The notes: generated by a model from the letters alone, not told the origin. A DNA stretch of 64,000 nucleotides from a virus (IMGVR_UViG_3300020203_000404:32001-96000), one strand, 5' to 3'. Shown: positions 5,296 to 64,000, counted from the stretch's first letter. Numbers and translations: made by a program.

Positions 5296-6090
5296 ATGGA
5301 TGATCAAGTAATAGAACTTTACAAGCAGTGTGGTAATGGTGGATTAGTAGCTAAGCAATTAGGCTTAACTAACTACAAGGTGTATGCTATTCTTAGAAAG
5401 AATGGTATAGAGCCTAAAAAGGTTGGTGGTAAAGAAAAAGCAACCATTGAACAGATGACACAAGCTTATAATAATGGCCTGTCTTGTACTCAAGTTGCTA
5501 GACAATTTGGACTTACCTCTCCTTCTGTTGTAGAGCGTTTGCAAAATGCTGGTATACAGCTACGCTCTAAACAAGAAGCTTTAGAGTTATGTGGACACAC
5601 TAAGATTAAACGTTCTGACGAACAGAAGGTTATTGATTTGTATGAGGAAGGCTTATCATATAGAGATATAGCATGTTTGTATGATAGTACCACCAGATGT
5701 GTAGAGAGGGTTCTTAAAAAACACAGTATTGAACCACGCGATAATTTTGGTTCTAACAACCCAGCCTGGAAAGGCGGTAAAGTTCCTCTCAATAAGCTGA
5801 TTCGTAATTCGCAAAAGTACACAGATTTTGTTAAGCATATTATGGCGTCTCGTGATTATACTTGTGAGTTGACTGGTCAACGCGGTAATCGACTAAACGT
5901 ACACCACATCAAACCATTCTCACAACTTGTTGATGAATTTATGATTAGATATGGTCATATTTCTGATCGCGAACAACTGATGACCACAATTGAAACTTAT
6001 ACACCTTTTTGGGAAGAATCGAACGTGTTATTGGTCACAGAAGAAGAGCACAAAAAGATACACTCTAGTGTATTATCTAAGGGGGTTTAA
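5296..6090 (+). CDS. HNH homing endonuclease with N-terminal HTH repeats
   Basis: Three HTH-like repeats; NPAWKGG; RDYTCELTG...LNVHHIKPF...NVLLVTEEEHKKIH; AT-richer than flanks. Confidence 0.85.
   Translation: MDDQVIELYKQCGNGGLVAKQLGLTNYKVYAILRKNGIEPKKVGGKEKATIEQMTQAYNNGLSCTQVARQFGLTSPSVVERLQNAGIQLRSKQEALELCGHTKIKRSDEQKVIDLYEEGLSYRDIACLYDSTTRCVERVLKKHSIEPRDNFGSNNPAWKGGKVPLNKLIRNSQKYTDFVKHIMASRDYTCELTGQRGNRLNVHHIKPFSQLVDEFMIRYGHISDREQLMTTIETYTPFWEESNVLLVTEEEHKKIHSSVLSKGV
6064..6074 (+). promoter_or_regulatory. Candidate late-promoter motif TCTAGTGTATT
   Basis: In the 3' end of the HNH gene, upstream of RBS AAGGGGG and ATG 6090. Confidence 0.5.
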
Positions 6091-6962
6091 TGGCCAACGA
6101 AACAAAAATTCTCACTGTCGGTCAAGCTGCATCAGCCCTAGACATCTTTCTATCCGCTAACGGTGCTCCTGTTAGTGGACAATATGTAGGGTTTAGGCTA
6201 TTTGACGCTGCTAATGCTTCCGCCGTTAGCGGCGTTGCACTTAATCCTGAACTAGGACATTATACTGGTTCTGGCTTAATTCCCCCTGGTTATCAACTAG
6301 GCAGTTGGCATATTGATTGGACGATCGTTACGCAGACAAATTCAGTAGTCTTTGCAAGCGAACCATTTCAAGTCCAAGATGTATTAGTTTCTATTGGCTT
6401 TGCACCGCCAACAGATAAGACATCGACAATCTATGATGCTGTACGTATTGACATTGGCGATCCCGAAGGTCATATATTTGATGATAACTTTTTGCAGCAT
6501 GTGCTTGTAAAAGCTGTTCGTAGACTGAATCAAGCTTTGGGGCTTTCGCGAACATCTAGACCTCAAGGAATCCCCGGTGGATTTGGTGGTCCTAAGATCC
6601 AGGTCGCTGAACTTACAGTCGATGTTGAGGCTGGTACTATTGAGCCTAACAATGATGAATTGTGCGACTTGATCATTCTTCAAATGGAATACATCATTGT
6701 CACTGCTGAGACATCTGCACTCAAGAGACTTGGAGCGACTTTTGCTTCTGGTCCATTTGCAACTGTTGTAGGTGGCGTTGGCAATGAAGGCATTTCAGTA
6801 ACAAATGCCGACGGCGTGACAGTCAACATTAGTACTGGTCGTTTACAGTTCCGTACGACACTTCAACGTTTGGACGTTGAGACACGTAAGGAAGAACTTG
6901 AAACAGCAATTAAGCGTTTCCTGGGAAGAATGACGGGTTCAATGGGTAAGATGATTTATTAA
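6090..6962 (+). CDS. Virion protein, probable head-tail adaptor/neck
   Basis: Ig-like beta N-terminus followed by a helical VRIDIGD...FDDNFL adaptor-like segment; position after MCP. Confidence 0.55.
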   Translation: MANETKILTVGQAASALDIFLSANGAPVSGQYVGFRLFDAANASAVSGVALNPELGHYTGSGLIPPGYQLGSWHIDWTIVTQTNSVVFASEPFQVQDVLVSIGFAPPTDKTSTIYDAVRIDIGDPEGHIFDDNFLQHVLVKAVRRLNQALGLSRTSRPQGIPGGFGGPKIQVAELTVDVEAGTIEPNNDELCDLIILQMEYIIVTAETSALKRLGATFASGPFATVVGGVGNEGISVTNADGVTVNISTGRLQFRTTLQRLDVETRKEELETAIKRFLGRMTGSMGKMIY

Positions 6963-7399
6963 TGTCTAACAAGAATTGCAAGTATTGTGATGTGATTTTT
7001 ACTGCTAAAAATCAGCGGTCCTTATACTGTTCTGTGAAGTGCAAAAATAAATTGAAATCTGAAACAATCATGGCTAAACGTCGTGATAACCCGGAAAGAA
7101 AAACAGAAAATCAACGTAAATATTACCAAGACCATTGGTTTGAATTTCAAGCACGAAATTTTGCCCGTAGAGATCGTACCTTATCTGCTGATCTTGTACG
7201 TGAAGTCATGGAGAACGACAACTACACATGTCAATACTGTCATAAGCGTGGTGGTAAATTGACGATTGATCATCAACTACCAGTTTCGCGTGGTGGCACT
7301 GATGATCGTAAAAATCTTTGCACTGCTTGTCATCGCTGCAACTGTCGCAAAGGAGCTAAAACCGTCTCTGAATTTCAGGAGTATTTGACACGATGCTAG
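6962..7399 (+). CDS. HNH endonuclease
   Basis: DNYTCQYC...LTIDHQLPVSRGGTDDRKNLCTACHRCNCRKG; N-terminal CxxC...YCSxKC. Confidence 0.9.
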   Translation: MSNKNCKYCDVIFTAKNQRSLYCSVKCKNKLKSETIMAKRRDNPERKTENQRKYYQDHWFEFQARNFARRDRTLSADLVREVMENDNYTCQYCHKRGGKLTIDHQLPVSRGGTDDRKNLCTACHRCNCRKGAKTVSEFQEYLTRC

Positions 7400-7731
7400 T
7401 TCATTGCAAAACCCCCCGTGGTGTACTGTACATCAATAACGAACCTGTCTACGGCAGAGAAGATATGCACGATCCAGTTGATGTACCTTTTCAAGTCTAT
7501 GAAAAGTACAAAGATGCACTTGAAGACGCTACATATCGCGAGGGCTATCTTCGTGATAAGTTCGGATGGAATCAAGGTGAGATTGCGTTCACATATAGCG
7601 AATTGAAATGGCTGCCTGAAAATACACTTCGTAAAATCGCCAAAGGAATTGGAACGAGCGTCAAGAGAACCACTAAGAAGCAATTAGTACAAGATATTAC
7701 ACGAGCCCTTAGAAATGTCATTAAGACCTGA
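7393..7731 (+). CDS. Hypothetical protein with a C-terminal Rho-N/HeH-like helix pair
   Basis: LKWLPENTLRKIAKGIG...TKKQLVQDI. Confidence 0.6.
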   Translation: MLVHCKTPRGVLYINNEPVYGREDMHDPVDVPFQVYEKYKDALEDATYREGYLRDKFGWNQGEIAFTYSELKWLPENTLRKIAKGIGTSVKRTTKKQLVQDITRALRNVIKT

Positions 7732-8287
7732 TCGTCAGACTCAGCAAGTCAACATTAATTTTCCTTGTCCATACACTCAGGAACGTGGTGGTGTTTTGGG
7801 TTGGGCTCGGGCTTCTGGCATGTACTACGTTGAGTATGCTTTTAATCCTAGTGGTGTACATATTGCTGGTTTACAACTCAATGATATTGAGAATGTCAAC
7901 ATGACTCGTCAACCGTTTCAGCAGTACATTCGTAATATCGACATTCCATTCGCCATAGTTGGAGTTGCCACTAAAGGTGATTTTTTGACTGACTGGATAT
8001 ATCCAGTTGGAGCTATCAATCAAGGAGATATCGCATACGCTGGTCCAAGCGGCATGATCACGAACTCGTCAACTTTCGGAGGCGAAGTGATTGGCAAGTT
8101 CATTGGCGTTTTGATTCCCGAGCCGCACTGGGTAACTTTGCGTGGTATGGGATTCTCTCGTCAATACATCGACACCTCTAAGCATTCCAAGCCACTGATC
8201 TGGGAGAATAATCCAGCGGACGCTATTCGTTTAGCTACGCCGGGCTTTATCAAGGTTCGCGTTGATATGGGAGCTAGCCTAAAATAA
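7715..8287 (+). CDS. Paralog of the decoration-like protein 3672..4157
   Basis: Shared ERGG, LxDxENxN, VGxxTxGxFxTD, GDxxY and GFxxVRxD motifs. Confidence 0.7.
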   Translation: MSLRPDRQTQQVNINFPCPYTQERGGVLGWARASGMYYVEYAFNPSGVHIAGLQLNDIENVNMTRQPFQQYIRNIDIPFAIVGVATKGDFLTDWIYPVGAINQGDIAYAGPSGMITNSSTFGGEVIGKFIGVLIPEPHWVTLRGMGFSRQYIDTSKHSKPLIWENNPADAIRLATPGFIKVRVDMGASLK

Positions 8288-9972: not shown

Positions 9973-11379
9973 ATGACGAACAACAGAGTCTTCTGGGCAA
10001 TTGAGCAGCTTGCTTTAAAGGCAAACTCTTCACCCGCTACAAGCGGCGTGGCTGCTTTTAATGCCCGTAACTATGCTACAGGTGCTCTTGCATCGGGCAT
10101 AAACGAAGTGGGAGCACTATGGGAAGTGCCCCGTGGCGTACAAAGTGCCGGTATGAGCACGAAGTTTAATCTACAACAGGTTTTCCAAATTGGTCAGATT
10201 GAGCTTTACGAATATTCAGAACGTCAACCTGACATCGAAATGACAATTTCGAAGTGTGTTGATGGAACTAAGCCGTTGTTCTTGATGGTGACTGATCCGG
10301 CTGGCACGGACATCACTTCTAAGACGGCGAACTTCCGTGTTGACGTTGCCTTCCAAATTTTCCCAGATACGAAGTTCCGTGCAACTGGTAAGCCTGTGTC
10401 GATTTGCACTGGCTCTGGTATGTATCTGTCGAGCATCTCGTACACCTATCCGATTGATGGCTTCGTAACAGAAGACATCACGTTGGTTGGCAACGATAAG
10501 ATTTGGGGATCTTTCATCAACGTATCTGGCGTCACTGCCGGTAACGGCGGAACAGAATCACTTCTTTTGTTCCCGACTCCTGGCTTCAACGGCAACGTAG
10601 ATCCGAATGCCCCCGCTGGCGGACCCTCTGGTGTCTTTGGTCACGACGGTAACACGTCCCCACTTCTTGAGGGTGGAGCGTTTGAAACTGCCGGTGGTGC
10701 TGACAGATTCGGTGTTATTGTGGTTGGTTCTGGTGTAGCTCGTCGTGAAGAAGTGGACATCAGTCACTCGATCTTGCCGCGAGACATTCCGGGTATCATC
10801 ACGCCTAATATTTCGGGTATCAATGCTGCATATGTCAATGGTGGCTTTGGTTCTCAGGGGCCTGGAACTGCTTCTAACTTCACTCAGTTGATTACTAACG
10901 CGAATACGGATTACATTGCGGAACACATTCAGACGATCACCGTGTCCTTCTCGATTGCCCGCAAGGACATTTTCGAGCTTGGTAGCAAGCGTCCGTTCGT
11001 GAAAGTGCCGGAATATCCTCTCGAAGCAACGGCCAGCATCGCCGTTATCACCGCTCAGGGTGACCTAGTGGATGCAACGTCGCAGATCGACTGCGGGCCT
11101 GATAACACAAGAGAAAGCAACACAATCATCATCCGTACTTGCGACGGTCTCCAGGTTGACCTGGGTGACTCGAACCGCTTGACGGGCGTTGAGGTTGCTG
11201 GTGGCGAAGCTGGTGGTGACAACATGACTGTCACGTACAACTACTCAAGCTTCAACAACTTCTACGTGTCGCATGACTTCTTCCAGCCGAACCACCGCGT
11301 GGTGATCTTCGGAACGGGCAGAAGTCGCTTCAACGTAGGCAAGCCGCCGTTCTTGAGAAGCGACATCGGTCTCTTCTGA
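9973..11379 (+). CDS. Major tail (tube-like) structural protein
   Basis: Strong RBS GGAGG; MCP-like codon bias; internal duplicated motif (QVFQIGQ / DIFELGS); own terminator; upstream of the tape measure gene. Confidence 0.65.
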   Translation: MTNNRVFWAIEQLALKANSSPATSGVAAFNARNYATGALASGINEVGALWEVPRGVQSAGMSTKFNLQQVFQIGQIELYEYSERQPDIEMTISKCVDGTKPLFLMVTDPAGTDITSKTANFRVDVAFQIFPDTKFRATGKPVSICTGSGMYLSSISYTYPIDGFVTEDITLVGNDKIWGSFINVSGVTAGNGGTESLLLFPTPGFNGNVDPNAPAGGPSGVFGHDGNTSPLLEGGAFETAGGADRFGVIVVGSGVARREEVDISHSILPRDIPGIITPNISGINAAYVNGGFGSQGPGTASNFTQLITNANTDYIAEHIQTITVSFSIARKDIFELGSKRPFVKVPEYPLEATASIAVITAQGDLVDATSQIDCGPDNTRESNTIIIRTCDGLQVDLGDSNRLTGVEVAGGEAGGDNMTVTYNYSSFNNFYVSHDFFQPNHRVVIFGTGRSRFNVGKPPFLRSDIGLF

Positions 11380-14015: not shown

Positions 14016-14622
14016 GCTAACGATTCACGCCGATAGAGCGTGGGCACGCAGCATGCAAGAGATTGATCAGTGGATGCGAAGAGAACTTATTCCTGCCATG
14101 GTTTATGGTGGAATGGGTATCGTCGGCATTGCACAAACAGATTTCTATCGGTATGTTACTAGTGCTCGTGGCCTTAGTGAACTTGGTATCGAAGCGTCGG
14201 AACCGCCCAAGCTTTTGAGGGCTTATGCTACTACGGCTTTCAAAATAGTAGTAGGCAAAAATCAAATGATTTTACAGTTTGGTAATTATGCTAAACTGAA
14301 AGCCGCAACGCCACATCCAGCAAATGGTACTGGCAATCTTCATATCGACTCATGGTTAGAATGGGTTAAAGGCAAGGAAGTCAACAGAGGTTTTGTTCCG
14401 CGTTCCAAGCTTGATAAGAACGCATCGAAATCAATTCGTTTGGGAGAGCCGCTTGGTGGCCTAATGCTTCCTCGTGGAGCATATGGTAGCGTAGGGTTGT
14501 GGCGATTTCCAGCACAACTAAAAAGCTATGAACAACAATGGGTGACACAGAATATCGCCGTGATTCAAGAGTTGATCACTAAAAAGATGTTATCCGTCTT
14601 TATTACGAAGTTGGTGACGTAA
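13966..14622 (+). CDS. Hypothetical virion morphogenesis protein
   Basis: 218-aa ORF coupled to the tape measure start (TAATG). Confidence 0.65.
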   Translation: MTMGLDWTIELINPLNKLTIHADRAWARSMQEIDQWMRRELIPAMVYGGMGIVGIAQTDFYRYVTSARGLSELGIEASEPPKLLRAYATTAFKIVVGKNQMILQFGNYAKLKAATPHPANGTGNLHIDSWLEWVKGKEVNRGFVPRSKLDKNASKSIRLGEPLGGLMLPRGAYGSVGLWRFPAQLKSYEQQWVTQNIAVIQELITKKMLSVFITKLVT

Positions 14623-17600
14623 TGAGCAACAGACTAGAACTCGAAGCAATCTTAAAATTTGTTGGCGTTAAGATTAATGCCAATGTATTCAGTAACATTA
14701 GTCGTGCGGCTGCCGGTATGCCTGGGCCTGTACAGCAATTCAATCGTAACTTACATCAGAGCGTTGATGCCGCCAATAATGTTAATCGTTCTATTCGTGG
14801 CGTTAATTCTCAGTTGAGTGGTAGTGAAAAAGCGGCTCGTTTGTTCCTTCAGCGTATGGCTCAGTTTGCTATTCTGTTGCCGACGTTCGCCACTTTAAAT
14901 AAGAGTATTCAGGGTGGTGTGCAGTTCTTATTTGAATTTGATGCAATCATCAAGGATATCATTCGTACCGATATTGGTTCGATGACTGGTAAGTTTGATG
15001 AGATTGCTAAAAGTGCTTTTGCATTGTCTAAAGAATTTGGAAGTAGTGCGATTGTCGCGGCAGAAACAATCAAGACATATGTGCAGGCTGGTAATAGTCT
15101 AAAAGAAGCTAATGAGTTAGCTCGTTTGTCAATTCTTGCTACAAAAGCATCTACCCTAGACGCTGCTCAAGCTGTTGAGTTTTTACTTTCTGCTAGTAAG
15201 CAGTTCGGACTTGAGGGTGAAGCTCTCGCTAATTCTCTTGACGCTCTTGTAAAAGCGGAAGACTTGACCGCTCTTGAAGCTCGTGATATTGCCGACGCTT
15301 TTAAAACTGGCGGTAACTCTCTTGCTGTATTTGGCAAGGATATTAATGACTCAATCGGTTTGATTTCTGCTTTGCGTGAACAAACACGTAAGTCAGGTAA
15401 TGAAATTGGTACGTTCTTTAAGACGTTACAGACACGTATCTTTGCTGCTGGCGAATCACGTTCGGCAGTTGAAGGTCTTCGCGTCTCTGTTCAAAATTTT
15501 GATGGTACTCTACGTCCCACGCTTGCTGTTTTGAATGATTTGAAGAAGGCATTTTTTGGCGTAGAGGGCGGTGCCAAGGGATTATCTGAGGCAGAACAAG
15601 CTAATGCGGCTAAGGCTATTGCTGGCGTACGTCAGTTTGAAGAATTGATTGGTACTCTAAAGTCTCTTGATCGTGCTAATGAGATTGCTGCCGAATCGGC
15701 TAATGCGGCAGGTGCAGCACGTCAAAAGGAAGCGGTTGATGCAACCAAGCTTCAACGTCGCTTGGACGAATTGATTGCTGCTGGACAAGAATTGGCACAG
15801 TCTCTTGGTAATGCGGGTTCTACTGATTTTTTCAAGAATTCTTTAAAGGGCGTGACCAGCCTTGTGGAAGGTATAACCGAGATTGTTAATCTTCTTGATA
15901 AATTCAAAGTTCCCATCTTGCCGATTTTAGCTCCTCTTGCTATCAAAGGTCTTGATACCGTTTTTGGTCTTGGGTTGATGGGTGGTGGCAAGGGTGGCAA
16001 GGGTGGAAGTCCTGGTGGACGCGGAGGCGGAGGCGGAGGAGGTCCGCCTGGATTAAACACTGCTGATCTTGCTGCCAATACTGCTGCATTAAGGCAGTTA
16101 ACTGGCGTGATTTCAGAGCTTGTGCAACATATTAAAATGGCATCTGGTGCCTACAGCAATCAAGCAGCCGCATCGCAGTTGGCTATTGCGGCAACCAATG
16201 TACAAACAAAGACCATGGAGGTGCAAGCCGGAGTCACACGAGAAGCGACATCTGCTACGCAATCGTTTACGCAACGCATGAAGGCGGCTTTCACCACTCG
16301 GATTGGCGGCGGTACAGGCAGGAGCATTAGAGGTACTGATAGCGTCAAAAATTTTGCCATTTTTGCTGGGTTGACGATTGCCGGTTCGGCAGTTACGTCC
16401 GGTCTTAATCATCTTGCTGATAACCTTGGATCACGAAGTCCTGTTGCTTCGTCATTAACTAAAACAACAAGTGCTGCTGCACAAATGGGAATTCAATTTG
16501 CTGCCTTCGGACCACTAGCCGCTGGAGTTGCGGCTGCGTTTGGAGCACTTATTGACGTTGGATTGCGTTTTGCTGATAATATTGGAGATATGAACGACGC
16601 CTCTAAAGAGAACCTTCAGCTAAGGGTAGATAGTGTTAAAGAGACTGCTGGTCTCAAGACGGTTGGTAGATCTTCGGAAGCTACTGCCGCATTCGGCAAT
16701 GCATTGGAAGGTCGAGCTAAGCAAAACATTAACTACTCTCAAGCTTTCAAGTTAATATTTGATAGTATGGATACTGGTACAAAGAAGCTGATTGGTAGTT
16801 CGGCTGCACTTAAAGAAGTGTATTTGACGAATAGTCGTGTTATCAATACAACAGTAACAGATTCATTTACTGGTGCTTCAAAGGTCGTTTCAAGTTACGT
16901 TAAGGGTGCTGGTGCCGATCTAATTAAGCAGTGGGCTTTTCAAGAAAGCGGAGCTATTCAGAATCAAGAAGCTCTTGATCTATTGCGTGCATCGTATGAT
17001 TCAACTGGTAATAGTACATTAGTTTATCGTGATCAGCAAGACCTGATTGAACAAGCTTATGGTAGACTGGCCGTCGGTGCTGCTGAGGCCGCTAAGCAAG
17101 TTGAATTTTTAAGATTAACGTTTGAAGATATGAAGGATCTGCAAAGTCTTATCGCGTCTGCTCAAGACGTGAATTCTATTAATCGTGACATTTTGAATCA
17201 ATCAAAGAAGCCAGAAGACTTGGCACAGGGTATTGACGAACTATCTCAGACATCTAAAAACGCCACGTCAGATCTGGCCAATGCTCAAAAGGCTTTTGAA
17301 GATCTACTATCTACATTACAAGTTGCTGGTGCCGACATATCACAATTAGGTGCTTTTTCAAGCATGGAAGAGACCAAAAAGTTTATCGGTGACATTGGTG
17401 CATTACTTTCAAAGCCCAATAATGGTGCTGCAATCGCAAGTTTTCTTGGCGATAAAGACATGACGGACTCGCAGAAGAATTTTGCAAAAGAGTATATCAA
17501 TATTGAAAAAGATCGCATTAAGGCTACTTTGACAGCCAAAGAAGCTGAGGCTGCCTTTAGCAGCGAAGCATATAAGCGTAATCTAGAAGAGACAAGGGCT

Positions 17601-21517: not shown

Positions 21518-21518
21518 C

Positions 21519-22871: not shown

Positions 22872-22877
22872 TGTATT
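22867..22877 (+). promoter_or_regulatory. Candidate late-promoter motif TTTAGTGTATT (exact)
   Basis: Exact 11-mer; its TAG is the stop codon of the upstream gene. Confidence 0.6.
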
Positions 22878-45862: not shown

Positions 45863-45910
45863 CGGTTATGTTGATTGGTGTCATTATAATGATGGATGGA
45901 GGACTTAGAC

Positions 45911-49601: not shown

Positions 49602-49920
49602 GTATAATTTAACAAATCGTCTTGAAAACGAGATGCGTGTTTCGCATCCGAAACGCGGTCTTAAGGCGGATTATCAACGTAGTCGTACCGCCGCCATTCA
49701 GTTGTTTTGTTTGTCTTGCATGGGTGGCTGCCGTGCTGATGTAGTTGCCTGTACATCTAAGATTTGTCCACTTTGGCAGTTCAGACCGGGTGCCAAGAAA
49801 GGTGTGCGTCCGCCGGGTATTCCTAGCGAGGCAGACTATAATGAAATGATTGGCGGTCGCGTTAGTAATAAGCAGAGTGAAGCAGGACGTAAGCTAGGTA
49901 AAGAGGATGATGTAGAATGA
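49576..49920 (+). CDS. Small Cys-rich (Zn-binding) hypothetical protein
   Basis: AIQLFCLSCMGG...C....CPLWQFR; start may be 49633. Confidence 0.65.
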   Translation: MKSSKRIAKYNLTNRLENEMRVSHPKRGLKADYQRSRTAAIQLFCLSCMGGCRADVVACTSKICPLWQFRPGAKKGVRPPGIPSEADYNEMIGGRVSNKQSEAGRKLGKEDDVE

Positions 49921-50924
49921 ATCAGTTTTATGAACCGCAAATGAAGTCGATTGCGGAGCGAGTGAATCGCAAGCCGCGATTGGTACAGTGTATTCAGATG
50001 CTGAACGAAGAAGAGTTTGCCCCCTTGGTTCTGCGTTCGATCTATGATCAGGTAGACCGCATCCTAGTTATCGAAGGGGCGGTCGCAAACAACCCTCGAT
50101 CGACGCCCGATGGGCATTCGATCGACAAGACCCGTGAAATCCTAGCGGATTTCAAAGCGAATCACGACCCCAAGAAAAAGGTTGTTATCATCTCTATCAA
50201 CAAGCATTGGAAAAACTTGGAAGAGATGAAGCAGACGTTCTTGGATATGTCCATTCCTGGTGATTGGATTTTGATCAATGATGCTGACGAAATCTATCGT
50301 CCAGAAGACATCATTCGGCTCCGTCGTGCGATCGAATTGAATCCACATGTACAAGAGTGGATTCCGGCGTTTTTGCATTTTTATCGTGACTTTCATCATA
50401 TTGCCAAACCTGGACCCGAATGGAATCCATTACATCAAAGAATATTTAAGTATGTACGTGGCATGAAGTATATTGGCCACCCAACAGTATGTGACCCCGC
50501 TGGCAACGATACTTATTTCAATCCACAGTACTGGCATCGCCGCTATAATTTGAATGATTTCTTCATCTATCATTATGGGTATGCACGTAGTAATATGGAC
50601 GAGATCATGACTGCTAAGCAGGAATACTATGGTAAGGAATTGGTCGCTCACGGAGCAGCCAACAAGAAGTTCGATCAAAAAGTCAAGGATTGGTTCGCTA
50701 ATACTGAGCCGATTTTGTACTTTGATGGCAAACATCCTAGCGTGATGGAAACCCATTCAATGTGGCACGCTTGGACTGATCGTAAAAGCGACACAATGCA
50801 TTGGCGTGAAGATCCATTCTACGCCAAAGTTCTTGCTGGAGAACAATTTGGAACTATGTGGCTTAATCAAACGGGCCAAGCACAACCGCCCGTTCCATTC
50901 TTTCACAATCAATTAGACGTATGA
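49917..50924 (+). CDS. GT-A (GT2-like) glycosyltransferase
   Basis: NEEEF...SIYDQVDRILVIEG; DWILINDADEIY; IYHYGY. Confidence 0.8.
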   Translation: MNQFYEPQMKSIAERVNRKPRLVQCIQMLNEEEFAPLVLRSIYDQVDRILVIEGAVANNPRSTPDGHSIDKTREILADFKANHDPKKKVVIISINKHWKNLEEMKQTFLDMSIPGDWILINDADEIYRPEDIIRLRRAIELNPHVQEWIPAFLHFYRDFHHIAKPGPEWNPLHQRIFKYVRGMKYIGHPTVCDPAGNDTYFNPQYWHRRYNLNDFFIYHYGYARSNMDEIMTAKQEYYGKELVAHGAANKKFDQKVKDWFANTEPILYFDGKHPSVMETHSMWHAWTDRKSDTMHWREDPFYAKVLAGEQFGTMWLNQTGQAQPPVPFFHNQLDV

Positions 50925-50954: not shown

Positions 50955-51797
50955 GTGCCTAAGCTATCGTATCTTGTCTCGACCTATGATGCTGGCCACT
51001 ATCTTGACCGGCATATTGCCGACTTGCTTGAAAAGCAAACTGATCCCGACTTCGAGATCGTTGTTATGAATCCCGCTTCTCCTGGCACCGATGACATCAT
51101 TGGTAGGAAGTGGGCCGAGTTTGACTTGCGAGTCAAGTATCTTTATTGGCCAACACGAGAATGGTACGGTACGTCGTGGCTAAGAGCTTGGCAGAGTGCC
51201 ACTGGCGATTTCGTGATCAATAGCAACGCAGACGATTACCACGCACCGACTACTACTGCTGAGTTTCATAAGCACATGAGCTTTGCGACCAGCGGCATGC
51301 ACGCCGGTCGCAAGATTGGTTTCGGATATGCTGGCATTCATGTCATCGACGATCATGGCGTTTCACTTGGCGGTGGCATTAAGCCGCCCTTCGACTTTGA
51401 ACTAATGAGTCGTGAGTGTTGGGCGGGCCCTCAAGTGTGTTGGCGGAATGATCCGGCCTTCAAGAAGTCGCTAGACTGGGACTTAATGTTCGCTCGTTCC
51501 GAACAATACCGATCAGCGTTTGATTACTGGCTATGGCTGTATTTCATGTCCCTGGGCTATCACGGTCATGTGATCCCCCAGGTGCTCACGATTTACACTC
51601 AAAGACCCGGTTCGATCGAGAACAGCAACAAGTCTGCGAACAATTACGAGACTTACTCGGCCATTTCCGAGTTCTTCGGTCATAATTTCAGGGGACACTT
51701 GAAGCACGCGATCGAGTTCGAAGACTTCAAGAGCCCCCCACCGCGTGACGAATGGATTGCCACTATGCAAGCTGGCAAGAAATGGAAGCGGTCATAA
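50955..51797 (+). CDS. GT2-family glycosyltransferase
   Basis: KLSYLVSTY; FEIVV; ATGDFVINSNADD; DYWLWL. Confidence 0.85.
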   Translation: MPKLSYLVSTYDAGHYLDRHIADLLEKQTDPDFEIVVMNPASPGTDDIIGRKWAEFDLRVKYLYWPTREWYGTSWLRAWQSATGDFVINSNADDYHAPTTTAEFHKHMSFATSGMHAGRKIGFGYAGIHVIDDHGVSLGGGIKPPFDFELMSRECWAGPQVCWRNDPAFKKSLDWDLMFARSEQYRSAFDYWLWLYFMSLGYHGHVIPQVLTIYTQRPGSIENSNKSANNYETYSAISEFFGHNFRGHLKHAIEFEDFKSPPPRDEWIATMQAGKKWKRS

Positions 51798-51827
51798 TTT
51801 CAATGGACACTTGAAGCACGCGATCGA
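51677..51827 (+). repeat. 39-bp direct repeat (37/39 identical) at the 3' end of the GT2 gene
   Basis: CGGTCATAATTTCA(GG/AT)GGACACTTGAAGCACGCGATCGA at 51677-51715 and 51789-51827. Confidence 0.9.
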
Positions 51828-51854
51828 AACTGAGTGATGTCGTAAGACTAGAGG

Positions 51855-52223
51855 ATGATTATGATTTTTAAGAAATTGTGGTATCAGGTATTTGCTTCCA
51901 AGCTCTATCGCAGAGAGCGTGAAACATTTCAACTTTTTCGAGATAAATGTGGCGAAGTATTCAAGCTTCAAAGTGAAATCAATAGACTTGAGCTACCTAC
52001 GTATATTGGCAGTTGGGTAGCATCACAATCCCATGCCGCGAAGCAACGTATCGTTGCTCTAGAGCATGACCTTGCGAAGATGAGTCTTGTACGCGACGCC
52101 TTGAAGCATGAAAAGGCTTACTCGCTCTTCTTAGAGGACAGTCTTATATGTCACAACCCTGTCGAAGTATTTAACGCCCTTCCGTTTGACAAGCGGAAAG
52201 AGTATTTTGAACGAGCACAATGA
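51855..52223 (+). CDS. Hypothetical protein
   Basis: ORF with ATGA coupling to the next gene. Confidence 0.6.
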   Translation: MIMIFKKLWYQVFASKLYRRERETFQLFRDKCGEVFKLQSEINRLELPTYIGSWVASQSHAAKQRIVALEHDLAKMSLVRDALKHEKAYSLFLEDSLICHNPVEVFNALPFDKRKEYFERAQ

Positions 52224-53305
52224 TCAAAGTTCTTCACTATCTGCGTCACCTTGGGTTAGGTGGTACTGAAAAAACATGCCAACTCTTTTTCGAGCACGCT
52301 GACGTTAGCGAGTTTGAAGTAGCCGTAGTATACGACACTGGTGGCACTCATCCTCGTCGAGAAGAGTTTCAGAAGTCCGCCATGGTTTGTGGTGGCAAGT
52401 TGTACAGCGTAGACACGCACGGACACAGCAACGCAAACGAGTTGCAGGCTGTCATCGACGATTTCAAGCCTGACATCTTCCATGTCTACCGTAGCGGCTA
52501 TCACGAGTTTCCGAGTCCTGGACACCACATCCAGGTGCCACGCTTCGTAGAGACTAACGTGTTTGGCTTCTACGACGGTAATCCAAAGATTAACAAGTCA
52601 CTGTTCATGAGCAAATGGCTCATGCAGAACACCATCAAGCAGCTTGGTGTCAAGCCAGACCGCTTTGACTTCGTGAACAACCCTGTTGAGATGCCGTGTA
52701 CGGGCGACGTGCTGGCAATTAGTCAGCGTTGGAAGGCCGAGGGGGCGATTGTTGTGGGTCGCTGTGGTCGTCCAGACAACGGCATCTACAACGCAGTGAG
52801 TGTTGATGCTGTTCGCCTACTACGTATGGTGGGACACGACGTTAGGTTCTTGGTGGTTGCTCCGCCGTCCAACATGATCGACGATCTAGCACGCCATGAG
52901 ATCCCGTTCTACGTCATCGAACCAACAACAAGTCCCTTGGTTCTAAGCACATTCTATAACAGCGTGGACATTTACACGCATGCCAGAGCGGATGGCGAGA
53001 CCTTTGGCGTGAACATTGCTGAGGCCATGATCCATGGCAAACCAGTTATCACACATATCGCCACCCCAAGTGTGCCGGGTATGGGCGTGTTCCAGTCACA
53101 GACGGAGCTTGTAGACAATGGCCGTACCGGCTTTGTTGTGAACAACACTCCTGGCGAATATGCGGAAGCCTTGAAGGCCCTGATCGACGATGAGCGTTCT
53201 CGCAACATCATGGGTGAACTAGGTAGACGTAAGGCCCAAGCAGAATACGAGGTTGGCGTCTGTATGCACAAACTCGAAACCATTTACAGAGAGATAGTAT
53301 CATGA
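52220..53305 (+). CDS. GT4-like glycosyltransferase
   Basis: LGLGGTEK; DIYTHARADGETFGVNIAEAMIHGKPVI. Confidence 0.9.
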   Translation: MIKVLHYLRHLGLGGTEKTCQLFFEHADVSEFEVAVVYDTGGTHPRREEFQKSAMVCGGKLYSVDTHGHSNANELQAVIDDFKPDIFHVYRSGYHEFPSPGHHIQVPRFVETNVFGFYDGNPKINKSLFMSKWLMQNTIKQLGVKPDRFDFVNNPVEMPCTGDVLAISQRWKAEGAIVVGRCGRPDNGIYNAVSVDAVRLLRMVGHDVRFLVVAPPSNMIDDLARHEIPFYVIEPTTSPLVLSTFYNSVDIYTHARADGETFGVNIAEAMIHGKPVITHIATPSVPGMGVFQSQTELVDNGRTGFVVNNTPGEYAEALKALIDDERSRNIMGELGRRKAQAEYEVGVCMHKLETIYREIVS

Positions 53306-53781
53306 TGAGAACTGGTCGTCCTGCAACTAATCCCATAACACGCTTATTGAATAGAATCAATAAGTGTAGCGGAGTATTTGGCGAAGACGGCAAATACGAA
53401 ACAGAGTGTTGGCTCTATACGGGATATATTAACAGGCTTGGATATGGCACAGTTGGCATTCGACAGAGTTTTGTGCTCGCACACAGATTAAGCTACGAAT
53501 ATCATAGGGGTATTATTTCTAATAACTTATGTGTAGATCATCTATGTCGAATGCGTTCTTGTGTCAATCCAGATCATATGGAGCTTGTAACGCGAGTAGA
53601 AAATGTCATGCGTGGCAACAGTCTTCATGCTGTCAACTTGAGGAAAACACATTGTAGTCATGGTCATGAATTTACGTTAGAAAATACAGGCATAGATGGA
53701 CGCAATAGACGTTATTGTAAACTCTGTGCTCGCGATAGACGCCGCAAGTTTCAAGGATATCAAGGTCATGGAAAAGATTAG
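53302..53781 (+). CDS. HNH homing endonuclease
   Basis: CWLYTG; AHRLSYE; VDHLCRMRSCVNPDHME; KTHCSHGH...CKLC. Confidence 0.9.
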   Translation: MMRTGRPATNPITRLLNRINKCSGVFGEDGKYETECWLYTGYINRLGYGTVGIRQSFVLAHRLSYEYHRGIISNNLCVDHLCRMRSCVNPDHMELVTRVENVMRGNSLHAVNLRKTHCSHGHEFTLENTGIDGRNRRYCKLCARDRRRKFQGYQGHGKD

Positions 53782-54922
53782 AGTTGTACATCACGCGAAA
53801 ACTGTCGGATTTTCTGGCACGGACAGAACTTGTCAGTTATTTTGCAAGTACCTCGCCAAGAGCGAGAAGTACGAACCGTTTATCGTCTATCGCGAGGGCG
53901 ATCTGGCGAACAATCGTCTAGCTATTGTGAAACAATGGCTAGGCGATGACCACGTAATTCCATACCAATGGACCCCTGGAAAGAAGGGTCGGCAAGCCCC
54001 CTACCTGCCAGAGTCGGACAACCTCTACGACGTTTTAAAGCAGATCGACCCACAGATTATGCACGTCCATCGCAGCGGCTACACGGAATGGCCAGCCTTT
54101 CGCTACATGGCACCCAAGGCGAAGTGGATAGAGACTAACATCTTCGGCTTTAAAGATAATGCACCTGAACCGCAGATCGACGTTAACGTCTATATCTCCC
54201 AGTACATTCGCAGCACCGCCTTGGGTGCCGGTAGCGTCGATGGTCCGGTATTATACAACCCGATTGAAGTGCCGGTACTCGACGTTACGACAGAGAACAA
54301 GGAAGTATGTCGCGAACATCTTCTTTCAACTTTCAAGCTACCTCATAATGCAGTTATACTTGGACGTGTAGGTCGAGCAGACAACTTTGATCCTATCTCT
54401 CTAAGAGCGTTTAAGGCTATTGAAGATGTCTATTCGAACGCCTACTACATTGTTGTAAATCCTTGTCAGGGTTGGCACGATACGGTGCGTCAGCTAGGCA
54501 TTAAGAACGTTTGCTTTTCAAGCCCTATCGTCAAAGACGATGAACTGTCAAAATTCTATATGGGACTTGACATTTACGCTCACGCTCGTCATGATGGAGA
54601 GTGCTGTCCGTGCAACATCCAGGAAGCCATGATGCATGGTCTGCCGGTGGTGTCACACGAGAGTATGATCTATAACGGTCAGTCTGAGATCCTTGCTGAA
54701 AGTGGCTTTGTTGTTCCTGTTGGCAATCACGAAGCTTATCGTGACGTACTAATGCAGCTTATTGCCAATCCTGAACTCGCGACGGAAGACGAGAGGTCTA
54801 CTATTCGTCTACGACAGCACTTCGGTCGCGAAGCCCGTCGCCGTGCTATGCGACACTTTGAAGCAAGTACCGTGACAGGACAGTTGATGCAAATCTACGA
54901 TTGGACATTGGCAAACAAATGA
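53768..54922 (+). CDS. GT4-like glycosyltransferase (paralog of 52220..53305)
   Basis: GTDRTCQLF; HVHRSGY; ETNIFGF; GRVGRADN; DIYAHARHDGE; EAMMHGLPVV. Confidence 0.9.
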   Translation: MEKIRVVHHAKTVGFSGTDRTCQLFCKYLAKSEKYEPFIVYREGDLANNRLAIVKQWLGDDHVIPYQWTPGKKGRQAPYLPESDNLYDVLKQIDPQIMHVHRSGYTEWPAFRYMAPKAKWIETNIFGFKDNAPEPQIDVNVYISQYIRSTALGAGSVDGPVLYNPIEVPVLDVTTENKEVCREHLLSTFKLPHNAVILGRVGRADNFDPISLRAFKAIEDVYSNAYYIVVNPCQGWHDTVRQLGIKNVCFSSPIVKDDELSKFYMGLDIYAHARHDGECCPCNIQEAMMHGLPVVSHESMIYNGQSEILAESGFVVPVGNHEAYRDVLMQLIANPELATEDERSTIRLRQHFGREARRRAMRHFEASTVTGQLMQIYDWTLANK

Positions 54923-56960: not shown

Positions 56961-57290
56961 ATGTCAATAACTTTAACAGAGAGTGCTATTAAAGAATTAG
57001 ATCGTATTATGTTAGAACAGAATCTTTCAAAAAATACATGCCTTCGTTTAGGAGTGCGAGGAGGCGGCTGTTCGGGCTTTAGCTATATTTTAGAATTCGA
57101 TGACACTGTGAATGAAGTAGATCAAGTTAATGAACATGGCGGCATTACAGTTGTTTGTGATCCAAAGAGTTTTTTGTATCTTAGTGGTATGAGTGTTGAC
57201 TTTGAGAACACTTTAATGAATCGTGGTTTTAAGTTCATCAATCCTAACGCAGTTAAAAGCTGTGGATGCGGCGAGTCGTTTTCGGCATGA
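56961..57290 (+). CDS. iscA: A-type Fe-S cluster carrier (IscA/HesB/ErpA)
   Basis: LRLGVRGGGCSGFSY; NPNAVKSCGCGESF; RBS AAGGAGG. Confidence 0.95.
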   Translation: MSITLTESAIKELDRIMLEQNLSKNTCLRLGVRGGGCSGFSYILEFDDTVNEVDQVNEHGGITVVCDPKSFLYLSGMSVDFENTLMNRGFKFINPNAVKSCGCGESFSA

Positions 57291-58159
57291 CAATGCGTAT
57301 TCTAGTTTCATACAGAGGAATTCCTCAGTCTCGTGGCTGGGCGACTGGGGATTGCGTCGTTCGTGCTTTTCAAGAACTTGGGCACGAAGCTGTTCCATAT
57401 GGTAACTACTATCAGACACAAGAGAGACTAGAGGGCTCACGGAAGGTCTTAGAAGAAGACTGGGACTTATTCTTATTTCTTGAATGCGGCGATGGCGATC
57501 CCGTCTATACAGAGCTAATGAATGTACGGTCACGCAAGCGAGCTAGCTGGTTTTTTGATGCCGCACTCTATCCTGATCGTTGGCGAGCAATCAATAACAT
57601 GTTTGGCTTTGATGTTAACTTTATGGCAAACGCCAATATGATCTACGATGGAATGTACTTGCCATACGCCGCCGATGAGAAGTTGCATTTTAGATCTTAT
57701 CAAGAAAAGGTTCGTGACTTTCTAATCATAGGTTCTGATAGACCAGAACGTCGCCACCTTTACAATCTAATTAGACAATATTGTCCGGCAGCAAGAACAG
57801 ATTTTTTGCATGGCGTGTTTAGAGAGCAGTACATTGATGAGATAGCTAGATCTCATTATGTTGTAAATGATGTTGCTGGTGGAGGGGGTGGTTTATTACC
57901 CATGAGATGCACCGAAACCATGGCGGCGTGTAGTGTGCTCCTCAGTGTACAAGATTCGGCCCTGCATACCATTGGCAATGATCTTGAGCACTTCATTTCA
58001 TTTCAAGACGAAAACCATCTCGTTGGCAATATTCCAAAAATGTTTTCTGTGGGAGAAAGTCTTTCCAAGAGAATTGCCACTCAGGGCCAAGAGCATTGCT
58101 TGAAGAACCATACCTACAGGAATAGATGTTCGGCCATTTTGACTAGGATGTTCCCGTAA
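57287..58159 (+). CDS. CgeB-like glycosyltransferase
   Basis: YLPYAADEKLH; MRCTETMAAC; GQEHCLKNHTYRNR. Confidence 0.75.
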   Translation: MTMRILVSYRGIPQSRGWATGDCVVRAFQELGHEAVPYGNYYQTQERLEGSRKVLEEDWDLFLFLECGDGDPVYTELMNVRSRKRASWFFDAALYPDRWRAINNMFGFDVNFMANANMIYDGMYLPYAADEKLHFRSYQEKVRDFLIIGSDRPERRHLYNLIRQYCPAARTDFLHGVFREQYIDEIARSHYVVNDVAGGGGGLLPMRCTETMAACSVLLSVQDSALHTIGNDLEHFISFQDENHLVGNIPKMFSVGESLSKRIATQGQEHCLKNHTYRNRCSAILTRMFP

Positions 58160-58167
58160 TTATTCCA

Positions 58168-58248
58168 GATAGTGCTGGACAAGATGTTGTTTCAAGTAAT
58201 CATATGTATGGGCACCGTTGTTCGACGATCTTAAAAAGTTGTTTCCAC
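58168..58248 (+). pseudogene. Orphan C-terminal fragment of a CgeB-like glycosyltransferase
   Basis: Translates as DSAGQDVVSSNHMYGHRCSTILKSCF, 11/26 identical to the upstream gene's C-terminus. Confidence 0.6.
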
Positions 58249-58923
58249 ATGAAAGAGTCTGACAAGATTAGTATTTTGGTTTGCTGTCACAGCAACGATC
58301 ATGAGCACGACATGCTTTTGCAAGCTGCTCTTGAGTCTTTAACTCGACAGACGTATCAAAATTTTGAAACTGTTTTAGTGCTTGATGAGTGTCGTGAAGG
58401 CACGAAATGGATAGCTGAGCCCTATAGGGATATTTTAAGTCTTAAGATTCATGAGCGTTCCCATAAGCAAGGCTTGGCAATGGCTAAGAACTTTGGTCTA
58501 GCTCGCTGTACGGGTCAATGGGTTGCCTACCTTGATGCTGACGACCAGTGGATGGATTGTAAGCTTGAACTGCAACGCAACTTCCTTTTAGAGAACGAGA
58601 ATACGGATTTTGTATTTTGTGAAGTATGGGATAATTATGCTGGTACGCTAACTCCTAACTGTTTCAAGATTGGGCAATACGAAACCCACGCGGCAATTGC
58701 TGCTGCGATGCCGCGTGAGAATGTTGTATGTCACGGCTCAGCGTTAATTCGTAAGTTAGCTATTGATTCTCTGGGTGGTTACAGTACCGACCGTTTACTA
58801 TTGGGTCGCGAAGACTGGGATTTGTGGCAAAGAGCTATCGCTAATGGATTTCATTTCTATAAAATACCAGAAAGATTGTATATTTATGGCATGGGAACTA
58901 GCGTTGTTCGTGGCGAAGTATAA
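58249..58923 (+). CDS. GT2-family glycosyltransferase
   Basis: ISILV; ESLTRQTY; GLAMAKNFGL; VAYLDADD; EDWDLW. Confidence 0.92.
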   Translation: MKESDKISILVCCHSNDHEHDMLLQAALESLTRQTYQNFETVLVLDECREGTKWIAEPYRDILSLKIHERSHKQGLAMAKNFGLARCTGQWVAYLDADDQWMDCKLELQRNFLLENENTDFVFCEVWDNYAGTLTPNCFKIGQYETHAAIAAAMPRENVVCHGSALIRKLAIDSLGGYSTDRLLLGREDWDLWQRAIANGFHFYKIPERLYIYGMGTSVVRGEV

Positions 58924-59885
58924 TGAAATTACTTTATTGTGGACTAAGATTCAACTATGGCAAATCACTAGAGGGCGATAGCTACGAATATTGGAATTTT
59001 GAAGCTGGATTGAAGGAATTTTGCTTATCTCATAAAATAGAACTTCAAATTTATTATCCAGACTATTCTAATATTGCTGTTGACGAACTATGCACTACGG
59101 CATTTGATGCCATTATTCACTTTGCCTTTAATGAATCATTAGATTTGCCAGAGTGTATTGCTAAATTGGCATTAAAGCGTGATGTTCCCGTTATTCAATT
59201 TGATGCAGATTCAAGCTGGCGTTTCCAGAACTGGATCTTCCCGCGTCGTGACCGCGTGAGTCACTTTGTCACTACTCATTCTGCCACTATTCCTTGGTAT
59301 GAAAAGAATGGCTTGAAAGTTATTAAGTCACAGTGGGCTGGTTCCCCGGCGTATAAGGCGAATCCGTGGGCGTATATGTACGACGCTACGTTTGTTGGCC
59401 AGAAGCATGGTCAGATGCCGAATGGCAAATTTCTACGCTCAGAGATCGTGGATGCCATTATGAACGCTGGTATCCGCGTTGACATCTTTGGTAATTACTG
59501 GGATGGTTATGCCAACTGGCATGGCTACGCGAAGGACTTTGAAGAAGTGATTCGCGTATTCAATCAGTCGCGTGTCAATTTGAATCTGTCGAATCCATGG
59601 CATCATGGAACGATGCCACAGATTAAGGGCAGGCACTTCGAAATTCCTCAGTGTCAAGGGTTTCAGATTAGTACGCCAGCAGACGATCTTGAATCTTACT
59701 TTGTACCAGACAAGGAAATAGTCATTGCCAAAAACGTTCAAGAGTTGATTGAGAAGACACAATACTATCTTGCCAATCCAGAGGAGCGAGAGGTAATTGC
59801 TCAAGCGGGTCGTGACCGTATGCTTCGTGACCATCAATGGTACCATCGTTTCGAGTACATCTTTAAGGAAGTGGGATTGCTATGA
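58923..59885 (+). CDS. CgeB-like glycosyltransferase
   Basis: YDATFVG; SRVNLN; KGRHFEIP; YYLANPEEREVIAQAGRDRMLRDH. Confidence 0.85.
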   Translation: MKLLYCGLRFNYGKSLEGDSYEYWNFEAGLKEFCLSHKIELQIYYPDYSNIAVDELCTTAFDAIIHFAFNESLDLPECIAKLALKRDVPVIQFDADSSWRFQNWIFPRRDRVSHFVTTHSATIPWYEKNGLKVIKSQWAGSPAYKANPWAYMYDATFVGQKHGQMPNGKFLRSEIVDAIMNAGIRVDIFGNYWDGYANWHGYAKDFEEVIRVFNQSRVNLNLSNPWHHGTMPQIKGRHFEIPQCQGFQISTPADDLESYFVPDKEIVIAKNVQELIEKTQYYLANPEEREVIAQAGRDRMLRDHQWYHRFEYIFKEVGLL

Positions 59886-62785: not shown

Positions 62786-62786
62786 C

Positions 62787-63368
62787 ATGAAACGCTACGA
62801 TATCATTCGTCATCTGATTGAGGCACGCGACTACAAGTCGTATCTTGAAATTGGTGTACTGGAACAAGAAACATTCAACAGCTTGCCGCCATTAGATGTT
62901 AAACATAGTGTTGATCCTAATGGGCAAGCTGTGTTTAATACTACCTCCGACGACTTTTTCAAGAATCATTGTCATCAATATTATGATTTAATCTTTATTG
63001 ACGGCTTACATCTTGAAGAGCAAGTGCAAAGAGATATGGAAAATTCATTGACATACCTAAACGAAGGTGGCATAATTATAGTACATGACTGCTTGCCTTC
63101 GGCAGAGTATGAGCAACTGCGAGAAGGTGTTAGTGGCAAACCATGGACTGGGGACGTGTGGAAGGCATTTGCAAAGCTGCGAGCGGATCGTAGGGACTTA
63201 ATTATGCGTGTTGTGGACACTGATTATGGATGTGGGTTGATTGAGCGTGGTGTCGATCCGGTCGAGTATCACTCAATTGATGGCGATTACACCTGGGACT
63301 TCTTCTGTAAGAATCGTAACGAAATCATGGGTGTTATTACACCGGAGCAGTTCATTGGACGTTCATAA
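62787..63368 (+). CDS. Class I SAM-dependent methyltransferase (Methyltransf_24-like)
   Basis: YLEIGV; TSDDFF; DLIFIDGLH; GGIIIVHDC. Confidence 0.9.
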   Translation: MKRYDIIRHLIEARDYKSYLEIGVLEQETFNSLPPLDVKHSVDPNGQAVFNTTSDDFFKNHCHQYYDLIFIDGLHLEEQVQRDMENSLTYLNEGGIIIVHDCLPSAEYEQLREGVSGKPWTGDVWKAFAKLRADRRDLIMRVVDTDYGCGLIERGVDPVEYHSIDGDYTWDFFCKNRNEIMGVITPEQFIGRS

Positions 63369-63882
63369 TCGAGATTGGGTTGTAGCCCGTAACAATCTTT
63401 TGAATGGTAAGCTACTTGAGATTGGTAGTTTTGTTGTGCCCGGCCAAGAACAGATTGCCTTGCGACCAGTAGTCGAAAAGTTTGTCAATAGCTATCTCGG
63501 CATTGACATGCGTGAAGGCCCTGGCGTTGATCTCGTAACTAGCGAAGACAACGCCTTTCCTTTTGAAGATAACACATTTGATGTCGTTGTATCGTTAGAC
63601 ACCCTTGAACACGTTCGCAACCCTTGGACGTTCATTGAAAACGCAGCGAGAGTCCTAAAGCCCGGTGGTCACTTCTTTTTGGCTACCGTGTTTTCATTTC
63701 CTATTCATGGTTACCCGGATGACTACTGGCGTTTCACCCCCAATTGCTTGAAGATGCTCATCGAGACCTATGGTCTCGAAGTGGCAGGTGATTTGACGCC
63801 ATCTGAATGCTGTACTAAAAACCCTGCACATCACTTGGCGAACCCGACAATCGTTCGTCTAATTGCTAGAAAGCCACTATGA
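63355..63882 (+). CDS. Class I SAM-dependent methyltransferase
   Basis: GGAG + TTG start; LLEIGS; GPGVD; FDVVVSLDTLEH; RVLKPGG; HGYPDDYWRFT. Confidence 0.88.
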   Translation: MDVHNRDWVVARNNLLNGKLLEIGSFVVPGQEQIALRPVVEKFVNSYLGIDMREGPGVDLVTSEDNAFPFEDNTFDVVVSLDTLEHVRNPWTFIENAARVLKPGGHFFLATVFSFPIHGYPDDYWRFTPNCLKMLIETYGLEVAGDLTPSECCTKNPAHHLANPTIVRLIARKPL

Positions 63883-64000
63883 ACGCCAAGACATTAGTTA
63901 CTGGTTCGTCTGGATTTTTAGGTCAACATGTCGTTCCACTCTTACGTGCCGACGGTCATGAAGTGATGACCCCATCAAGTAACTCTTTGAACTTACTTGA
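63879..64000 (+). CDS. NAD-dependent epimerase/dehydratase, N-terminus only (GDP-fucose-synthase-like)
   Basis: MNAKTLVTGSSGFLGQHVV Rossmann motif; runs off the window. Confidence 0.75.
   Translation, partial: MNAKTLVTGSSGFLGQHVVPLLRADGHEVMTPSSNSLNLL

Follow-up and report, generated by a model that had tools for sequence, protein, structure and literature searches.

A conserved Ser-Gly-hydrophobic motif in the outer tail proteins of an uncultured phage, a candidate O-glycosylation sequon for its own soluble glycosyltransferases

The glycans of chloroviruses are N-linked to Asn residues of the major capsid protein (MCP). The xylosylation sequon of proteoglycans consists of a Ser-Gly core, is specific for Ser, has acidic flanks and often takes the form SGxG. 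Ser-Gly also occurs as an element of structure: the type I turn with a G1 beta-bulge is made of a small polar residue, Gly and a hydrophobic strand residue, and Pro is often found two positions before the Gly. We know of few phages that glycosylate their own particles and of no acceptor motif defined for them. For mycobacteriophages, the account of Freeman et al. 2023 given in PMC12619734 places glycans on the C-terminal parts of capsid and tail-tube subunits. The bacterial autotransporter heptosyltransferases TibC and AAH, which are cytoplasmic enzymes, modify Ser, not Thr, at loops of beta-structure proteins, and Ser-313 of TibA, the residue modified by TibC, lies in the sequence N-S-G-G (PMC4358343). 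Here we describe a Ser-Gly (SG) motif followed by a hydrophobic residue in the outer tail proteins of an uncultured phage, together with the island of glycosyltransferase (GT) genes in the same genome. The stretch analysed, IMGVR_UViG_3300020203_000404:32001-96000 (64,000 nucleotides, referred to as the window), comprises bases 32001-96000 of a single-contig phage genome of 151,810 bp. We propose, with a confidence that falls just short of even, that the Ser of S-G-[VILMF] in the neck, tail-tip and fibre proteins would be the O-glycosylation acceptor for the soluble GTs of the phage.

All genes of the window are on the plus strand. Head genes are followed by neck and tail genes, the tape measure, a tail-tip module (20000-35052), a replication module (RecA, a DnaB-like helicase, primase and DnaE), a sigma factor and the sugar-enzyme island. 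An earlier reading of the sequence alone, hereafter the sequence-only reading, had counted SG dipeptides by hand and had suggested that unrelated surface proteins converged on an S-G-hydrophobic acceptor motif for a methylated O-glycan coat built by the phage. The proteins of the window on which the motif was studied are the following (expected counts from shuffles, conservation from orthogroups, both described below).

6090..6962, +: neck-region virion protein of 290 aa, in the neck/sheath block; SG 4 vs 1.9 expected; no Pfam or PHROG match
7715..8287, +: neck-region protein of 190 aa; SG 3 vs 1.0, 3/3 followed by a hydrophobic residue
8854..9879, +: virion protein of 341 aa; SG 6 vs 1.6, 5 of them SG-hydrophobic
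9973..11379, +: virion protein of 468 aa, sheath-sized (putative role); SG 7 vs 4.3, all SG-hydrophobic
14622..19997, +: tape measure of 1791 aa (PF10145, 72.5 bits), lacks the motif and serves as internal control; SG 8 vs 12.1
20000..21517, +: tail-tip protein of 505 aa; SG 12 vs 3.6; conservation 82% for SG serines vs 61% for the other serines
21519..22079, +: tail-tip protein of 186 aa; SG 6 vs 1.9; conservation 80% for SG serines vs 36%
22230..22871, +: tail-tip protein of 213 aa; SG 7 vs 2.7; conservation 65% for SG serines vs 41%
24180..28979, +: tail-tip protein of 1599 aa; SG 37 vs 18.6, TG 6 vs 15.4; conservation 90% for SG serines vs 35% for the other serines
28982..32299, +: probable central hub/spike of 1105 aa; SG 18 vs 8.0
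32299..34221, +: hypervariable tail protein of 640 aa, 22-26% identity within the family; SG 8 vs 4.6
34366..35052, +: tail-tip protein of 228 aa; SG 7 vs 2.3; conservation 85% for SG serines vs 32%

The hand counts were all reproduced, both for the nine proteins named as exterior (6/341, 7/468 with 7/7 followed by V/I/M, 12/505, 6/186, 7/213, 37/1599 with 18 GS, 18/1105, 8/640 and seven in the open reading frame (ORF) starting at 34366 or 34393) and for the controls (tape measure 8/1791, a 624-aa protein 2, helicase 1/500, DnaE 5/1095, MCP 1/345). Expected counts of dipeptides were then taken from shuffles within each protein, which control for composition. The nine proteins contained 108 SG where 47.7 were expected (z 8.7), the highest score of all 400 dipeptides, the next being at z 3.5; in the same test GS reached z 3.0 and TG was found 31 times instead of 42 (z -1.9). 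The remaining proteome contained 148 SG against 170 expected. The excess thus persists after correction for composition, and an artefact of composition is ruled out by the shuffles.

Since the proteins had been chosen after counting, contiguous blocks of unselected genes were tested as a guard against selection bias. The tail-tip block held 95 SG vs 43.8 expected (z 8.8) and the neck/sheath block 21 vs 10.2 (z 3.6). The tripeptide S-G-[VILMF] gave a sharper signal than the dipeptide, with 56 vs 12.5 (z 13) in the tail-tip block and 18 vs 3.0 (z 8.7) in the neck/sheath block. SG was at chance in the head/packaging (17 vs 17.1), tape-measure (9 vs 14.8), replication (15 vs 15.3) and GT-island (22 vs 24.5) blocks; with the nucleotide-metabolism block included, all of these lay between z -1.6 and 0. 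The MCP (1 vs 1.2), the portal and the other head-module proteins were likewise at chance. A second SG-rich cluster was found outside the window at genome positions 105388-109689 (SG 32 vs 16.7, z 4.2; SG[VILMF] z 6.2). Two of its proteins match the PHROG annotations 'head decoration' and 'virion structural protein' and three share an N-terminal region; they are probably fibres. In other words, the S-G-hydrophobic motif, which the sequence-only reading had described as frequent in exterior proteins and scarce elsewhere, is real and is confined to the outer tail, neck and fibre proteins, where about 150 SG sites are spread over more than 15 unrelated proteins. The glycan coat of the same reading is not supported for the head, the capsid, portal and other head-module proteins having no excess. 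No Ser-Gly motif in phage tails was found described in the literature.

The typical context of the motif is [VIL]-A-[VPA]-S-G-[VIL]. In the blocks where SG was enriched 2.2-fold, [DN]G was at chance, NG and DG not falling below it, even though Asp and Asn are what commonly precedes Gly in turns. SG was encoded by many codon pairs, and 25 of 69 conserved SG sites showed both TCN and AGY Ser codons among relatives, so the signal resides at the level of the protein. A DNA motif or DNA repeat as its cause is ruled out by the same two observations.

The phage is a member of a large metagenomic family with contigs of 137-183 kb, and this allowed the fate of the SG sites to be followed among relatives. 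Orthogroups were built from 33 family loci for six proteins of the tail tip and for eight non-virion proteins encoded nearby, with 21-34 relatives. In the tail orthogroups (87 SG sites) the Ser of SG was 85% conserved and the Gly 92%. The corresponding values were 44% for Ser outside SG, 66% for the Asp of DG, 55% for the Asn of NG, 54% for the Thr of TG and 77% for Gly as a whole. SG serines in the non-virion orthogroups were 28% conserved (10 sites). In the 1599-aa protein, whose identity within the family is 35-76%, the SG pairs are almost invariant although the sequence on either side varies. Among 115 homologues of the 1105-aa protein, 13 SG columns were at least 80% conserved, against 3 for GS, 2 for TG, 3 for AG, 6 for NG and 3 for DG, and the SG excess itself persists in more than 100 homologues. 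Where the Ser of SG was replaced, Thr was not preferred (13% of replacements). Conservation of SG far above its surroundings is the strongest new result of this analysis; the two Ser codon classes at conserved sites show that selection acts on the residue.

A different picture emerged at larger distances. A profile search against 1.8 billion representatives retrieved homologues covering the full length of the 1105-aa protein, at 22-46% identity. Seven of them were SG-rich (17-24 vs 7-11 expected) and nine, at 24-33% identity, were at chance (3-10 vs 5-9). Two of the SG-rich homologues (22-27% identity) share only 2 of the 18 SG sites of the query. At the few SG positions that were ungapped, in alignments of modest quality, the chance-level homologues had DT, TD, LD or NN, so neither Ser nor Gly seems to be required there. 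On these alignments the fold does not dictate SG. At four sampled loci from two distant lineages the tail neighbours were again rich in SG (21 vs 5.9, 14 vs 4.7, 21 vs 5.0, 29 vs 11.5 and 18 vs 7.9). The turnover of positions together with the SG-rich tail neighbours of distant lineages makes the excess a trait of the clade, one that shifts from protein to protein and from site to site and, once in place, is kept. The different SG positions in distant homologues would also fit repeated acquisition, as in the convergence supposed by the sequence-only reading; a link of the motif to the enzymes does not follow from these data.

The second element of the proposed system is the island of sugar enzymes, which comprises the following features.

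45896..46570, +: sigma-70-like factor directly upstream of the island (PF04542, PF04545)
46570..48369, +: soluble GT-B of 599 aa with a C-terminal DUF4214 domain, candidate protein-directed enzyme; homologue in 5/5 distant lineages
48366..49601, +: GT4 of 411 aa, core in 4/5 distant lineages
49917..50924, +: GT2 of 335 aa, core in 5/5 distant lineages
50955..54922, +: lineage-variable GTs (Pfam), namely a GT2 (50955-51797) and two GT4 (52220-53305 and 53696-54922)
53302-53781, +: HNH endonuclease ORF inside the GT island
57266..59885, +: lineage-variable GTs, namely PF13524 (57266-58159), GT2 (58204-58923) and PF13524 (58923-59885)
59882-60415, 60686-61402, 62685-63368 and 63241-63882, all +: four S-adenosylmethionine-dependent methyltransferase ORFs
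61880-62785, +: GT2 among the methyltransferase ORFs
63879 to the end of the window, + (genome 95879-96835): NAD-dependent epimerase/dehydratase ORF running off the window (PF01370, 174.7 bits)
genome 97049-98089, beyond the window: GDP-mannose 4,6-dehydratase following the epimerase (PF16363, 352.9 bits)

The large soluble GT island of the sequence-only reading was thereby confirmed, with its four methyltransferases and, in addition, genes for deoxyhexose synthesis. The count of about 11 GTs needed correction: Pfam recognises 10 in the window and three elsewhere, 13 in the genome. The NDP-sugar enzyme corresponds to the epimerase/dehydratase ORF at 63879, next to which lies the dehydratase. 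Two of the three GT-like ORFs outside the window adjoin the terminase gene (genome 24375-25319, PF13524, 84.5 bits, and 26171-26980, GT2), and family searches gave matches at the corresponding places in most contigs of the family. None of the island ORFs has a membrane-like segment. The sigma-70-like factor may time the expression of the island. The endonuclease ORF at 53302-53781 is accompanied by a weak N-terminal HNH_3 match in a gene of the IMP dehydrogenase (IMPDH)/GMP-reductase family (55679-56944, 213 bits), and both look like traces of homing-endonuclease traffic within the island.

The island was compared with those of five distant lineages, the comparison covering the GT-bearing regions of their genomes. 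Only three of its genes, those for the 599-aa GT-B, the 411-aa GT4 and the 335-aa GT2, recur in the distant lineages, where their order is kept. For the other GTs, the methyltransferases and the GDP-sugar genes, counterparts were seen in the nearest lineage alone, which makes these genes lineage-variable. Methylation of the glycan, as supposed earlier, is speculation. GTs are encoded on each of the 18 large contigs of the clade that were searched, this genome among them, at MCP identities as low as 43%, so the co-occurrence of motif and GTs across related phages, though examined, cannot discriminate between explanations: the clade offers no contrast without GTs. The ten GTs of the window had only generic, sub-threshold matches in NCBIfam, none reaching the cut-off, and the 599-aa GT retrieved only virus-specific GT clusters from the ESM Atlas. 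No ThyA-type hydroxymethylase was found in the genome, which weakens the classical route of DNA glycosylation and leaves DNA as a possible target.

The combination of a Ser-specific, directional and conserved motif on outer tail proteins with a constant core trio of GTs would fit an O-glycosylation sequon. The mechanism might be as follows. Glycosylation would take place in the cytoplasm, on those serines of the neck, tail-tip and fibre proteins that lie in loops or at the edges of strands. One enzyme of the core trio would start the glycan on the Ser of newly made tail proteins. The lineage-variable enzymes, seven further GTs and the four methyltransferases, would extend and decorate it, and the GDP-mannose dehydratase together with the epimerase/reductase could supply a 6-deoxyhexose. 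The finished glycan might shield the tail tip or bind to the host surface. That the enzymes act on proteins, which of them initiates and what the glycan does we infer. The wider proposition, that a Ser-Gly-hydrophobic sequon with well over 100 sites in each set of tail-tip, neck and fibre proteins is read by the core trio throughout this clade of uncultured 140-185-kb phages while variable enzymes build differing glycans, is possible, and we hold it more tentatively.

Several observations weigh against glycosylation of the SG serines. The MCP, which is exposed and is a known glycosylation target in mycobacteriophages, has no SG excess, and the non-virion proteins of the phage showed no avoidance of SG in the gene-block test. 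No GT matches a family known to glycosylate proteins, and a search for GT9 enzymes (PF01075) in the 151.8-kb genome gave no match. With no clade genome lacking GTs, motif and enzymes may both be mere traits of the clade. The link between them is one that we infer. The AlphaFold2 models, on which the placement of the sites depends, are poor overall (mean predicted local distance difference test, pLDDT, 49.7 for the 1105-aa protein and 53.8 for residues 1100-1599 of the 1599-aa protein). The remaining points of this kind concern structure, and they lead directly to the main, serious rival: a purely structural code in which Ser-Gly forms tight turns or strand connections of the G1-bulge type and the island serves another target. 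We regard this as a real possibility, though somewhat less likely than glycosylation.

The context of the motif is what strand-turn-strand geometry would produce, its hydrophobic flanks possibly implying partial burial. The SG sites are fixed in position within the family, as structural residues are, and some belong to ordinary structural repeats, lying either in a repeat of 14 aa or where a PKD domain begins. The 1599-aa protein contains a Laminin_G_3 domain, seven tandem 14-aa units of the form xxxxxVSG[VI]IGGYx (residues 1265-1360, window 27972-28260) with seven SG, and at the C-terminus two PKD-like sandwiches (2c26, Z 11.4, root mean square deviation (rmsd) 2.5, 91 aligned) which hold another seven. 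In the PKD-like region, the confident part of the model, six of the seven SG are predicted in loops or at strand ends and one within a strand. That helical or internal proteins such as the tape measure lack SG is also what beta-turns would predict. Lastly, the tail proteins of lambda, a phage with no GT, are biased in the same way (SG 28 vs 18, z 2.6; DG z 2.6; NG z 1.7; TG z -2.4), so part of the signal is a generic turn preference.

Other results are hard to reconcile with turns alone. Turns normally tolerate Asp, Asn, Ser, Thr and Gly, whereas here Ser is 85% conserved before Gly and Asn or Asp only 55-66%. A reason for the choice of Ser, unrelated to sugars, has been proposed within this explanation: Asn-Gly and Asp-Gly are chemically labile and might be avoided in particles with a long life. 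The lack of [DN]G enrichment where SG is enriched would fit such a replacement, but NG and DG are not depleted below chance. Homologues of the same fold lack SG, and even Gly, at ungapped positions, and no excess is seen in the capsid and portal proteins, which also contain beta-structure. Nor is SG a generic property of tail proteins: the baseplate, fibres and sheath of T4 show none of it (SG 57-61 vs 55-58, with 57 vs 54.8 in baseplate and fibres; SG-hydrophobic 15 vs 14.8) and lambda only the mild effect. Some general preference for Ser, Asp or Asn in front of Gly does exist, if a mild one; in this clade it is several-fold stronger and is restricted to Ser, because [DN]G stays at chance.

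The SG serines might instead have another function, such as phosphorylation, acylation or direct hydrogen bonds in assembly or receptor binding. The Ser-specific conservation without preference for Thr does indicate a need for this hydroxyl or for a residue of this size, whatever its use, but neither a kinase nor an acyltransferase turned up in the scanned ORFs, and some 150 sites over more than 15 unrelated proteins do not sit well with specific contacts; we consider such a role improbable. An artefact of statistics or annotation (due to composition, repeats within proteins, a DNA motif or post hoc choice of proteins) is very unlikely indeed, for although the proteins were chosen after counting and 7 of the 37 SG of the largest come from one repeat, the excess withstood the shuffles, reached z 8.8 and 13 in unselected blocks, is written in many codon pairs with switches of Ser codon class between relatives, and recurs in more than 100 homologues and at the loci sampled from two distant lineages.

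Some further features of the tail proteins and the genome should be mentioned. The 1105-aa protein is probably the central hub/spike, as its model suggests: the N domain resembles VgrG/gp27 (4mtk_A, Z 7.5, rmsd 2.8, 85 aligned) and the C domain the OB domain of P2 gpV (3qr8, Z 6.6, rmsd 3.5, 70 aligned), both at middling Z in a low-confidence model. It would thus appear to be a fusion of a gp27/VgrG-like hub with a gpV-like OB spike, some 700 residues of unknown fold lying between them. The 640-aa protein is a probable receptor binder and the hypervariable member of the tail module: relatives only 22-26% identical in it are 60-90% identical in the neighbouring proteins. The 14-residue period of the 1599-aa protein recalls the beta-roll head repeats of trimeric adhesins (the model is not confident there). 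Searches of Pfam and PHROGs with the tail proteins of the window gave no match except the Laminin_G_3 and PKD domains, and sequence searches of solved structures gave none for the tail proteins, the 468-aa protein at 9973..11379 included.

Of the functional labels given in the sequence-only reading, those of tape measure (PF10145), DnaB-like helicase and DnaE hold, while 'protease-scaffold' and 'chaperone-like' found no Pfam match to confirm them. The MCP is 26% identical to that of Bacillus phage G, the sole match among cultured phages, and neither megablast nor tblastn found a cultured relative of this phage. One member of the family, NZ_JAILWB010000012.1 (157,945 bp, 71% identity in the 1105-aa protein), has been binned as a contig of a metagenome-assembled genome (MAG) of Hydrogenophaga sp.; this is probably a complete phage genome that was binned along with the MAG, and the hint at a host is weak. 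Outside the window the genome contains arrays of hexapeptide-repeat cassettes which are open on both strands, the antisense ORFs being full of xFxPMVxF units. An excess of the PM dipeptide (157 vs 59) at genome 481-9407 and 134550-141420 was rejected as an artefact of antisense ORF calls in these arrays.

Should the SG serines prove to be acceptors, tailed phages would gain their first example of sequon-directed protein glycosylation, and sequence alone would suffice to predict glycosylated proteins in many uncultured aquatic phages. The large and puzzling GT islands of big phages would have found a function. A layer of sugar on the machinery of host recognition would bear on host range, on the stability of the particle and on how predators or immune systems recognise it. 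A purely structural motif would still be an unusual, clade-specific rule of tail-protein architecture in need of a structural explanation.

How, then, does this locus compare with the systems described at the outset? With the xylosylation of proteoglycans it would share the Ser-Gly acceptor core and the specificity for Ser. The analogy, drawn by the sequence-only reading, fails on context: the flanks are hydrophobic (V/I/L, A, P) rather than acidic, and no related xylosyltransferase was identified. The type I turn with G1 bulge uses Asp, Asn, Ser and Thr interchangeably, whereas here Ser alone is enriched and conserved. Like the chloroviruses and other giant viruses, the phage encodes a soluble cluster of GTs without export components, a GDP-mannose 4,6-dehydratase with an epimerase/reductase, and methyltransferases that could give methylated sugars. 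It differs from chloroviruses in being a tailed phage whose candidate acceptor is Ser in tail proteins, and its deoxyhexose and methyl genes do not belong to the core of the clade. The O-glycosylation of mycobacteriophages relies on phage-encoded GTs that modify the phage's structural proteins, and GT genes are present here too (10 in the window, 13 in the genome, by Pfam). Here, however, the capsid lacks the motif, the sites run along neck, tail-tip and fibre proteins, and the enzyme set, with 13 GTs, is much larger. By analogy, the nearest mechanistic precedent would be TibC/AAH, the cytoplasmic glycosylation of Ser rather than Thr at loops of beta-structure. Both cases would involve a soluble cytoplasmic GT-B and many serines in the loops of repetitive beta-structure proteins that end up outside the cell. 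The phage has no enzyme of the GT9 type and no heptose pathway was seen in it; and where TibC and AAH act on TibA and AIDA-I, the putative targets of the phage enzymes are tail proteins of many unrelated folds, with a hydrophobic residue following the Gly.

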